Shown piece by piece: positions 5,480-7,546 of a stretch of 31,897 bases of DNA. The stretch comes from a virus (Duplodnaviria; Heunggongvirae; Uroviricota; Caudoviricetes), in the IMG/VR virus record IMGVR_UViG_2724679539_000006, positions 1 to 31,897 of that record; one strand, written 5' to 3'. The notes under the pieces are model-generated. The model was not told the DNA's origin, did no database searches, and was given only the letters and a program-made list of their open reading frames with translations. Within the stretch, counting starts at the first letter, position 1, and each line of letters begins with the position of its first letter. Made by a program: the position numbers and the translations under genes.

Positions 5480-5812
5480 TCAATAGTAATAAGCTGGAAT
5501 TGATTTTCCGCGTTGCTTCTGGCGGCCTGAGCAGGTCACACCCATTTCACTGCGTGGCTTGCTGTACCATGTGCGCTGATTCTTGCGCTCAATACGTTGC
5601 AGGTTGCTTTCAATCTGTTCGTGGTATTCAGCCAGCACTGTAAGGTCTATTGGATTCAGTGCGCTTTCTACTCGTGATTTCGGTTTGCGATTCAGCGAGA
5701 GAATAGGGCGGTTAACTGGTTTTGCGCTTACCCCAACCAACAGGGGATTTGCTGCTTTCCATTGAGCCTGTTTCTCTGCGCGACGTTCGCGGCGGCGTGC
5801 TTGTGCATCCAT
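5480..5812 (-). CDS. N: N transcription antiterminator
   Basis: MDAQARRRERRAEKQAQWKAANPLLVGVSAKPVNRPILSLNRKPKSRVESALNPIDLTVLAEY... matches lambda N, including the Arg-rich motif; AGGAG RBS before ATG at 5812. Confidence 0.85.
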   Translation of the reverse strand: MDAQARRRERRAEKQAQWKAANPLLVGVSAKPVNRPILSLNRKPKSRVESALNPIDLTVLAEYHEQIESNLQRIERKNQRTWYSKPRSEMGVTCSGRQKQRGKSIPAYYY

Positions 5813-5922
5813 CTGGATTCTCCTGTCAGTTAGCTTTGAGTAACGCGCCGTGATGCTTATCTCCACGGTTGCTGTCTTGCAGCTGCATTTCGCGCTACTC
5901 AAAGCCTTCTGCTTTGAATGCT

Positions 5923-5952
5923 GCCCTTCTTCAGGGCTTAATTTTTAAGAGC
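5923..5952 (-). promoter_or_regulatory. nutL (boxA GCTCTTAA + boxB GCCCTGAAGAAGGGC)
   Basis: minus-strand sequence GGCTCTTAAAAATTAAGCCCTGAAGAAGGGCAGC matches lambda nutL with one boxA mismatch. Confidence 0.75.
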
Positions 5953-5985
5953 CTCACCTTCATGGTGGTTAGTGCGTCCTGCTGA

Positions 5986-6021
5986 TGGCTAAATAGTACG
6001 ATTTGTACTTTATCGAGTCAA
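5986..6021 (-). promoter_or_regulatory. PL-like promoter with overlapping operator dyad
   Basis: minus-strand -35 TTGACT (6016-6021), 17-bp spacer, -10 TACTAT (5993-5998), leader starting ATCAGCAGGACG as in lambda PL; dyad AGTAC-N5-GTACT (5995-6009) overlaps the -10. Confidence 0.5.
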
Positions 6022-6082
6022 TACAAAATGTTCTAAACATAATTAGTTTTTTATAACGCTTTGTATTTAATGGGTTTATATT

Positions 6083-6116
6083 TTGGAAAAAGAAAACCCG
6101 ACGCTAAGGTCGGGTT
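6083..6116 (-). terminator. intrinsic terminator downstream of the repressor gene
   Basis: 8-bp stem AACCCGAC/GTCGGGTT with 6-nt loop; minus-strand RNA is followed by UUUUCUUUUUCC; weaker U-rich tract on the plus side as well. Confidence 0.5.
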
Positions 6117-6146
6117 ATTGTTGTGTGTTTTAGAGTTGTGAGGCTG

Positions 6147-6806
6147 TTAGCTAAATGTCTCTTCAGGCCACTGGCTGGCGATAACTTTCCCTACTACGGA
6201 ACAGCTATCATTGCATGGAATCATTGGATATTGCGGGTTTAGTGGCTGTAGGAACACCTGACCGCTATCCCTGATCAGTTTCTTGAAGGTAAACTCGTCA
6301 CCACCAAGTCTGGCTATGCAGAAATCACCTGGCTCAACAGCCTGCTCAGGGTCAACGAGAATTAACATCCCGTCAGGAAAGCTTGGCTTGGATCCTGTTG
6401 GCGCGGTCATGGAATTACCTTCAACTTCAAGCCAGAACGCACAATCACTGGCTTTTTTGGTTGTGCTGACCCATCTCTCCGCATCACCTTTGGTAAAGGT
6501 TCTAAGCTCAGGCGAGAACATCCCGGCCTGAACATGAGAAAAAACAGGGTACTCATATTGTTTTTTAACGGGGGCAGATGAGTATTCGCCAACAGGTGAA
6601 AATGTACCGTCGTGGTTGAATGAGACGTTATCAATACCAAGGTATTTAAACACCACACCAATCTCGTCAAGAGATGGATGACGAGATCCGCGCAACCAGT
6701 GACCAATTCCACCCTGCGTCATACCAAGCTCTTCAGCTAACTTCTCTTGAGTTATGCCGAGCTCTTTCATTCTGGATCTAGCCAGTTCATACCATTTCAT
6801 TTTCAT
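6147..6806 (-). CDS. cI: CI-type prophage repressor (XRE HTH + S24 LexA-like peptidase domain)
   Basis: N-terminal HTH ([22 protein letters not shown]); C-terminal GNSM...FKKL Ser/Lys dyad region resembling P22 C2; start could be ATG 6806 or 6800. Confidence 0.85.
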
Positions 6807-6862
6807 ACCCTTATTATTACGCTCTGTACTAAAACCATCCATGCACAAGATGTATTTTTTGT

Positions 6863-6891
6863 TTGCATTCTAAAAGTACATATCGTATTAT
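6863..6891 (+). promoter_or_regulatory. PR-like promoter with overlapping operator dyad
   Basis: -35 TTGCAT (6863-6868), 17-bp spacer, -10 TATTAT (6886-6891); dyad AGTAC-N5-GTATT (6875-6889) overlaps spacer and -10. Confidence 0.45.
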
Positions 6892-6917
6892 TATTTCATG
6901 GTTACTATGGAGGGCAT

Positions 6918-7133
6918 ATGAGCAACCTACGAAAATATCGAGAGTCACTGAATATCTCTCAAACAACACTTGCTAAGGCAGTTGGATGCACACAGGGAGC
7001 TATCGGACATTGGGAATCTGGTCGTCGCTTCCCAGACCTTAAAACATGCCGTGCTCTTGTTGAGTGCCTAAACAAGTTAGGCGCAAAAGTCAGTCTTGAT
7101 GACGTGTTCCCGCCGGAACACAAAGCCGCTTAA
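6918..7133 (+). CDS. cro: Cro-like HTH repressor (71 aa)
   Basis: MSNLRKYRESLNISQTTLAKAVGCTQGAIGHWESG... XRE-type HTH; GGAGGG RBS; divergent from the repressor gene. Confidence 0.65.
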   Translation: MSNLRKYRESLNISQTTLAKAVGCTQGAIGHWESGRRFPDLKTCRALVECLNKLGAKVSLDDVFPPEHKAA

Positions 7134-7141
7134 GACATTCC

Positions 7142-7173
7142 CGCTCTTACACATCCCAGCCCTGAAAAAGGGC
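7142..7173 (+). promoter_or_regulatory. nutR (boxA CGCTCTTA + boxB GCCCTGAAAAAGGGC)
   Basis: matches lambda nutR; followed by the lambda-like tR1/cII leader. Confidence 0.8.
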
Positions 7174-7234
7174 ATCAAATTAAACCACACCTATGGTGTA
7201 TGCATTTATTTGCATACATTCAATCAATTGTTAT

Positions 7235-7275
7235 CTAAGGAAATACTTACATATGGTTCGTGCAAACAAACGCAA
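7235..7275 (-). promoter_or_regulatory. PRE (CII-activated promoter) with TTGC-N6-TTGC CII site
   Basis: minus-strand TTGCGTTTGTTTGC spanning the cII start codon region, as in lambda. Confidence 0.55.
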
Positions 7276-7546
7276 CGAGGCTCTAAGAATCGAGAGTGCG
7301 TTGCTTAACAAAATCGCAATGCTTGGAACTGAGAAGACAGCGGAAGCTGTGGGAGTCGATAAGTCGCAGATCAGCAGGTGGAAGAGGGACTGGATTCCAA
7401 AGTTCTCAATGCTGCTTGCTGTTCTTGAATGGGGTGTCGTCGACGACGACATGGCTCGATTGGCACGACAAGTTGCTTCGATTCTCACCAATAAAAAACG
7501 CCCGGCGGCAACCGAGCGTTCTGAACAAATCCAGATGGAATTCTGA
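7253..7546 (+). CDS. cII: CII transcriptional activator
   Basis: 97 aa, [51 protein letters not shown]... essentially identical to lambda CII as recalled. Confidence 0.9.

Follow-up and report, generated by a model that had tools for sequence, protein, structure and literature searches.

Six predicted repressor operators of the VT2-Sakai type around the cI-type repressor gene of a P22-like phage

Operators around a cI-type repressor gene are annotated in VT2-Sakai (AP000422) and in a Stx1-converting phage (AP005153), with three "putative operator" features at OR and three at OL in each record, together with PL, PR and PRM. Sites of the VT2-Sakai type have been listed as "predicted operator sequences", after Fattah et al. 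2000 (PMC4587872). All six VT2-Sakai operators were shifted by lambda CI with an apparent KD of 3.7-6.4 μM, compared with 0.2-0.35 μM for lambda CI on lambda OL1/OR1 in the same assay (PMC10742460). This was the only EMSA found on VT2-Sakai operators, and lambda CI was used in it at micromolar concentrations. Cross-immunity between VT2-Sakai and lambda is attributed to Fattah et al. 2000 in PMC10742460. Binding of a cognate repressor was not found for the VT2-Sakai type or for phage L in the literature searched, which did not include Fattah et al. 2000 and Makino et al. 1999, and no operator data were found in the phage L genome paper (PMC8022706). The operators of 933W have been defined experimentally as 15-bp dyads with the half-site N-G-(T/A)-A-C, in which A4 and C5 are invariant (PMC3317979).

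The window analysed here is the whole stretch of 31,897 nucleotides. It is a P22-like podovirus genome, with APC_JM3.2, Dewey and IME10 as closest relatives. A consensus scan of 5700-7300 returned three sigma-70-like promoters, of which two are relevant (PL and PR). Coordinates of OL2, OL3, OR3 and OR2 were obtained by transferring the GenBank operator features to the window by alignment. The features of the region, with operators and promoters as predicted, are:

5812 to 5483, minus strand: N, lambda-type (Pfam N36).
5923 to 5937, minus strand: nutL boxB, GCCCTGAAGAAGGGC, lambda-type.
5993 to 6021, minus strand: PL, with -35 TTGACT (6021-6016), a 17-nt spacer and -10 TACTAT (5998-5993); predicted start A5986.
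5995 to 6009: OL1, AGTACGATTTGTACT, a perfect dyad over the PL spacer and 4 nt of the -10; homologue annotated in AP000422 and AP005153.
6020 to 6034: OL2, AATACAAAATGTTCT, 25 bp from OL1 and with a 2-nt overlap with the PL -35; annotated homologue.
6053 to 6067: OL3, ATAACGCTTTGTATT, 33 bp from OL2, with the weakest left half-site; annotated homologue.
6095 to 6116, minus strand: intrinsic terminator, between the cI stop codon and OL.
6147 to 6806, minus strand: cI-type repressor, 219 aa from ATG 6806, with HTH_3 (residues 11-58) and Peptidase_S24 (87-209).
6813 to 6841, minus strand: putative PRM, with -35 TGGATG (6841-6836), a 17-nt spacer and -10 AATAAT (6818-6813).
6816 to 6830: OR3, ATTACGCTCTGTACT, over the spacer and -10 of the putative PRM; annotated homologue.
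6842 to 6856: OR2, TGCACAAGATGTATT, abutting the -35 of the putative PRM; annotated homologue.
6862 to 6891, plus strand: PR, with -35 TTTGCA (6862-6867), 18 nt and -10 TATTAT (6886-6891); predicted start ~6898.
6875 to 6889: OR1, AGTACATATCGTATT, over the PR spacer and 4 nt of the -10; annotated homologue.
6918 to 7133, plus strand: cro, 71 aa, HTH_3.
7142 to 7173, plus strand: nutR, lambda-type, with boxA CGCTCTTA (7142-7149) and boxB GCCCTGAAAAAGGGC (7159-7173).
7253 to 7546: cII, lambda-type (Phage_CII).

A sequence-only reading of the window had pointed to a candidate operator dyad, AGTAC-N5-GTAYT, at 5995-6009 and at 6875-6889, and both coordinates were verified in the sequence. A motif search of the whole window with AGTACNNNNNGTAYT returned these two sites only, against 0.04 expected from dinucleotide-preserving shuffles. 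The search gave 3 strand-matches from 2 sites because 5995-6009 is a perfect palindrome, and this number was reached in 0 of 100 dinucleotide shuffles. The placement over PL and PR was borne out by the consensus promoter scan, each dyad spanning 11 nt of spacer and 4 nt of -10. Position, statistics, conservation and gene context all support reading the two dyads as candidate operators of the adjacent repressor. They are very probably OL1 and OR1 of a lambda-style immunity switch, in which six 15-bp predicted sites flank the repressor gene and lie upstream of cro.

The operator set as first read was incomplete, holding two of the six candidate sites. Nearby GTAC motifs and a palindrome at 6028-6040, ATGTTctaAACAT, had been put forward as possible additional half-sites. 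One of the GTAC motifs is OR3. The palindrome is present, and was rejected as an independent site since it overlaps the right half of OL2, its left arm belonging to that operator, and is unconserved: a C-to-T change disrupts it in Dewey, the closest relative, and it is also disrupted in Stx phages including the Stx1 phage. The tetranucleotide GTAC is rarer in the whole window than expected from base composition (68 against ~124), and 4 of its occurrences sit inside the six predicted operators.

The six sites give the consensus ARTAC-N5-GTAYT. Every one of the 12 half-sites has A at position 4 and C at position 5, while A at position 1 is shared by 11 of them and T at position 3 by 9. Matrix scores were 17-18 bits for OL1 and OR1 and 12-15 bits for OL2, OL3, OR2 and OR3, with poor left halves in OR2 (TGCAC) and OL3 (ATAAC); all six top-scoring positions of the scan lay within 5995-6067 and 6816-6889. 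As a matrix built from all six sites is circular, the set was checked with a symmetric matrix derived from OL1 and OR1 only, with leave-one-out matrices and with a motif-blind repeat search. With the matrix from OL1 and OR1 only, the top five of 31,883 positions were OL1, OR1, OL2, OR3 and OR2 (OL2 third, OR2 fifth), and OL3 ranked eighth. When each site was left out in turn and ranked among the non-training positions, OR2 came third and each of the other five came first. The motif-blind repeat search tied together five of the six sites through an inverted repeat between OL1 and OR1 (I2; 20 nt, 90% complementary, -10 hexamers included), direct repeats between OL1 and OR3 (D3) and between OL1 and OL3 (D6), and further pairs between OL1 and OL2 and between OL2 and OL3 (inverted repeat I3).

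Two other matches were rejected as operators. The match at 7041-7055 inside cro (AAAACATGCCGTGCT) scores ~10 and is coding sequence; it occurs in every E. coli lineage examined, probably conserved as coding sequence. The match at 5658-5672 inside N scores 10 or less and is likewise coding sequence. When the entire window was scanned against Rfam, all families stayed below the gathering threshold.

The repressor and Cro place the region in the VT2-Sakai/Sp5 immunity group. VT2-Sakai cI and the window repressor are 97% identical, without any difference in residues 1-46, which include the HTH, and Cro is identical at 70 of 71 residues (99%); the specificity should equal that of VT2-Sakai. The DNA-reading residues are the same, and the six operators are homologous in position and in half-sites. 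Spacings in the window are 25 and 33 bp at OL and 26 and 33 bp at OR (OR3-OR2 26, OR2-OR1 33), like the 25/33 and 26/33 of VT2-Sakai (Sp5), the Stx1-converting phage and the Stx2 II region (AP000422, AP005153, AP005154; Fattah et al. 2000). The window differs from VT2-Sakai in its central spacers and inter-operator DNA, and in that the podovirus genome carrying the module is P22-like and has N/nut and cII of the lambda type. The edge of OL3 at 6067 lies 80 bp from the cI stop codon (6147), and OL1 and OR1 are 880 bp apart, compared with ~2.3 kb in VT2-Sakai, where two extra ORFs intervene. The immunity type is an ordinary one, already predicted and annotated in VT2-Sakai; what is gained in practice is a full map of predicted operators and promoters in a P22-like relative that had no annotation. 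The VT2-Sakai/Sp5 group controls induction of a major Shiga-toxin 2 prophage, and from these sequences the window phage would be predicted to be homo-immune with Sakai-type Stx phages.

OL and OR were aligned across six lineages (the window, VT2-Sakai, E212, YYZ-2008, 2B8 and Salmonella phage L). Invariant columns made up 48 of 60 in the half-sites (80%), compared with 11 of 30 in the central five-base spacers and 30 of 77 in the remaining non-coding DNA, that is 41 of 107 (38%) outside the half-sites (Fisher p = 1.7e-7); the phages compared share descent, and part of this conservation is common ancestry. At OR2 the relatives keep the half-sites and vary in the spacer. Repressors with a related N-terminal domain occur in Vibrio phage Cla and Pseudomonas phage phiPSA1, where ATTAC-N5-GTAAT dyads stand beside the repressor gene and a 25-bp pair of dyads on its other side; Proteus phage Pm34 has ATAC-N5-GTAT. 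The dyads of these three phages indicate that the TAC-N5-GTA core tracks this HTH family across genera.

The repressor matches the lambda cI structure 3bdn at E = 2e-96. From YEYPVF (about residue 84) onwards it is identical to lambda cI at 133 of 135 residues, and its C-terminal domain has the Ala-Gly cleavage site, the GNSM serine and the FKK lysine. With a C-terminal domain nearly that of lambda, RecA-stimulated self-cleavage, dimerisation and dimer-dimer contacts are expected as in lambda. The N-terminal domain aligns with that of lambda, with distant similarity only, and is without the lambda N-terminal arm; the recognition helix is TQGGIGHW, compared with GQSGVGALFNG in lambda cI. The window cI and Cro are 35% identical across the HTH and have the helices TQGGIGHW and TQGAIGHW. 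Such near-identical helices are the expected signature of two proteins that would compete for the same sites.

Homology to lambda is lost in two patches only, 5988-6088 (OL1-3) and 6558-7139 (the HTH domain, OR and cro); the terminator, the repressor C-terminal domain, nutR and cII are lambda-like. The two patches indicate that the operator clusters were inherited with the DNA-reading parts of the repressor and Cro. Co-inheritance of operators with the DNA-reading parts of the proteins is the classical definition of an immunity module. As in lambdoid operator sets generally, the dyads are repeated and varied, lie in flanking clusters over divergent early promoters, accompany a repressor with an HTH and a LexA-like self-cleaving domain and a divergent Cro, and are co-inherited with the specificity parts. 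The module at 6558-7139 (N-terminal domain, OR and cro) is present in 786 of 5426 complete E. coli genomes at an identity of at least 90%. Nearly every copy lies on the chromosome, and in 105 records the identity is 99% or higher. Membership of imm lambda, which is marked by 17-bp operators of the TATCACCGCCAGTGGTA type and the lambda cI N-terminal domain, was rejected: lambda homology is absent across OL, the HTH domain, OR and cro, and the N-terminal domains share distant similarity only.

On the minus strand PL reads TACTAT-ttagcc-ATCAGCAGGACGCACT. The 16 bases from 5986 match those past the lambda PL -10, and lambda homology (98%) reaches 5987 and then ends. The 5' end of the lambda PL mRNA is AUCAGCAGG. 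For PR, an alternative -35 is TTGCAT with a 17-nt spacer. The patterns TTGAC(T/C/G)-N17-TA(C/T)T(A/G)T for PL and TTG(C/T)(A/T)T-N17-TATT(A/T)T for PR are retained in VT2-Sakai and phage L. PRM fell under the threshold of the consensus scan, with a weak -35 that adjoins OR2 and is the PRM -35 annotated in AP005153. Transcription from it would begin at the A of ATG 6806 and yield a cI mRNA without a leader. The terminator at 6095-6116, which presumably ends PRM and PRE transcripts, is 89% identical to lambda at the corresponding place, and an analogous feature is annotated in AP000422. In the scans the nut sites surfaced as inverted repeat I1 and as a hairpin resembling a terminator.

The layout resembles that of lambda in having three plus three dyad operators around cI, probably in a leaderless cI mRNA, and in the PL leader, nutL, nutR and cII, which are the same. 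Distances of the operator centres are given below, window and then lambda; the lambda distances from transcription starts use what we take to be the lambda start sites.

OL1 centre from the PL start: window -16, lambda -17.
OL2 centre from the PL start: window -41, lambda -41.
OL3 centre from the PL start: window -74, lambda -61.
OR1 centre from the PR start (~6898, as predicted, in the window): window -16, lambda -17.
OR3 centre upstream of the cI ATG: window 17 bp, lambda 19 bp.
OR2 centre upstream of the cI ATG: window 43 bp, lambda 42 bp.
OR1 centre upstream of the cI ATG: window 76 bp, lambda 66 bp.

The differences from lambda lie in the operators, which are 17 bp and of another sequence in lambda and 15 bp here, and in the HTH domain, which is not the same and has 13 fewer residues at its N-terminal end. 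The OR1-OR2 and OL2-OL3 spacings are both 33 bp in the window and 24 and 20 bp in lambda. OR2 overlaps the PR -35 in lambda and does not in the window. Unlike in lambda, Cro of the window belongs to HTH_3, as does the N-terminal domain of cI.

In the proposed switch a dimer of the cI-type repressor would place one HTH, through its TQGGIGHW helix, on each half-site. Occupied OL1/OL2 would block RNA polymerase at PL and occupied OR1 would block it at PR, and the prophage would then stay silent and confer immunity to superinfection by phages of its own type. OR2, at -43 from the cI start and beside the weak PRM -35, has the position from which lambda cI activates PRM, and OR3, over PRM, would shut the promoter off when the repressor concentration is high. 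In lytic growth Cro would be expected to bind the same sites through almost the same recognition helix. What the sequences show is the sites with their statistics and conservation, the overlap with promoters as judged from consensus and from lambda homology, and the domains of the proteins; binding, the sequence in which sites are occupied, activation of PRM and a cI mRNA without leader are what we infer from them.

A simpler switch than that of lambda would result if OL1 and OR1 alone were functional and OL2, OL3, OR2 and OR3 were look-alikes. The lower scores of these four sites (12-15 bits against 17-18) and the poor left halves of OR2 and OL3 speak for such a switch, as does 933W, which operates with two OL sites only (PMC3064807). 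Against it, the weak sites keep A4/C5, the GTA cores and their exact positions out to phage L while the intervening DNA diverges; they rank at the top in the window when left out of the matrix; and OR2 and OR3 lie within 2 bp of the lambda positions relative to the cI start. We regard the look-alike reading as improbable. Still less probable is that the likeness of the two regions is a by-product of two AT-rich promoters that share -10 and spacer bases, with no protein-binding dyad: the OL1-OR1 match (I2) does run over 20 nt including the -10 hexamers, and both regions are AT-rich, but internal twofold symmetry is not a property of promoters, the dyad recurs at four places outside -10 elements, and the motif tracks the repressor HTH type across genera and occurs at 2 sites where 0.04 are expected. 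This by-product reading is extremely improbable.

Recognition of the sites by a heterologous repressor, for instance lambda cI, has been suggested for the VT2-Sakai operators and would mean immunity shared with lambda. It would accord with the shift of the six VT2-Sakai operators by lambda CI (PMC10742460) and with the cross-immunity ascribed to Fattah et al. 2000 in that paper. The KD values for these operators, 3.7-6.4 μM as opposed to 0.2-0.35 μM on lambda OL1/OR1 (PMC10742460), are however near the non-specific range, the 933W repressor binding non-specific DNA at 6.1 μM (PMC3317979), and the operators and HTH domain are without lambda homology. Cross-talk would be explained more simply by mixed dimers formed through the near-identical C-terminal domains, and we judge recognition by lambda cI to be very improbable.

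Within the reading of six sites bound by the phage's own repressor, lambda-type pairwise cooperativity cannot simply be assumed, given the spacing of 33 bp compared with 20-24 bp in lambda. It is conceivable, although we think it rather unlikely, that the cooperative pairs are unlike those of lambda or that the repressor interferes with lambda cI through mixed dimers in double lysogens. Altered pairs might be, for example, OL1-OL2 and OR2-OR3, whose spacing is lambda-like, with OR1 occupied alone or by way of an OL-OR loop of 880 bp. If the pairs were altered, PRM autoregulation would be wired differently; if mixed dimers form, they would account for the 'cross-immunity' that PMC10742460 credits to Fattah et al. 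2000. The 25/33-bp spacing, retained across the E. coli phages and in phage L, combined with a lambda C-terminal domain offers a test case for spacing setting cooperativity.

The 933W operators, CGTACTGAAAGTACG (oR1), AAAACTTTCAGTTCA and TGAACCATGAGTACG, share with those of the window a 15-bp dyad about a central base pair and a GTAC core, and the recognition helices align as xxxG(V/I)xxW. The 933W residues S41, K42 and K46 read positions 2-5, and the aligned window residues are Q31, G32 and H36. The two repressors are, however, 20% identical, position 1 is C in 933W and A here, and the flanking bases and the spacings are not the same. Only two OL sites are present in 933W, and its repressor binds without cooperativity. 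That the window belongs to the 933W immunity group was rejected on this repressor identity and on the poor scores of the CG(T/A)AC-N5-GT(A/T)CG operators with the window matrix. As judged from the sequences, the resemblance to 933W is one of how the site is read and not of immunity-group membership. The BAA2326 operators were also compared and are unrelated.

Phage L, the informative outgroup, has the same motif in the same order in its immC (cII repressor and Cro). Its sites are AATACAAAATGTACT twice at OL and AGTACGAAATGTATT, CACACATATTGTATT and ATTACGAGATGTATT at OR, with spacings of 25/30 and 26/34; the OL2-OL3 spacing is 30 in phage L and 33 in the window. In Cro the two phages are 70% identical and share the recognition helix; their repressors have homologous N-termini. 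The DNA is ~72% identical in the HTH-coding part only, and the C-terminal domain is another one.

The repressor start is annotated inconsistently among relatives, some having a 696-nt ORF from an ATG at 6842, inside OR2, and others a 654-nt ORF from MKWYEL. In phages of Vibrio, Proteus and Pseudomonas the homologous proteins start at MKMKW/MKKW or align from there, which favours ATG 6806 (or 6800) and a leaderless PRM transcript.

Klebsiella phage phiKp_30 (LC768498, 2400-2660) carries the same immunity module with cI reduced to ~20 codons and OL3 lost. Operator positions that are conserved elsewhere are altered in it: OR3 is changed at A4 to G, OR2 at C5 to A, and OL2 at T3 to C and C13 to G; the base changes in this phage show no statistical concentration in half-sites. 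From its sequence phiKp_30 looks like a clear-plaque or virulent derivative. A further motif-like site lies ~115 bp past OL3 in VT2-Sakai, YYZ-2008 and 2B8 (AATACAATTGGTTAT), in E212 (AATACATTTGGTTAT) and also in 933W; the matching DNA is missing from the window. The lambda cII binding motif of PRE, TTGC-N6-TTGC, occurs as TTGCGTTTGTTTGC at 7262-7275 on the minus strand, at the start of the lambda-like cII. By analogy with lambda, establishment transcription would run antisense across cro and OR into cI.
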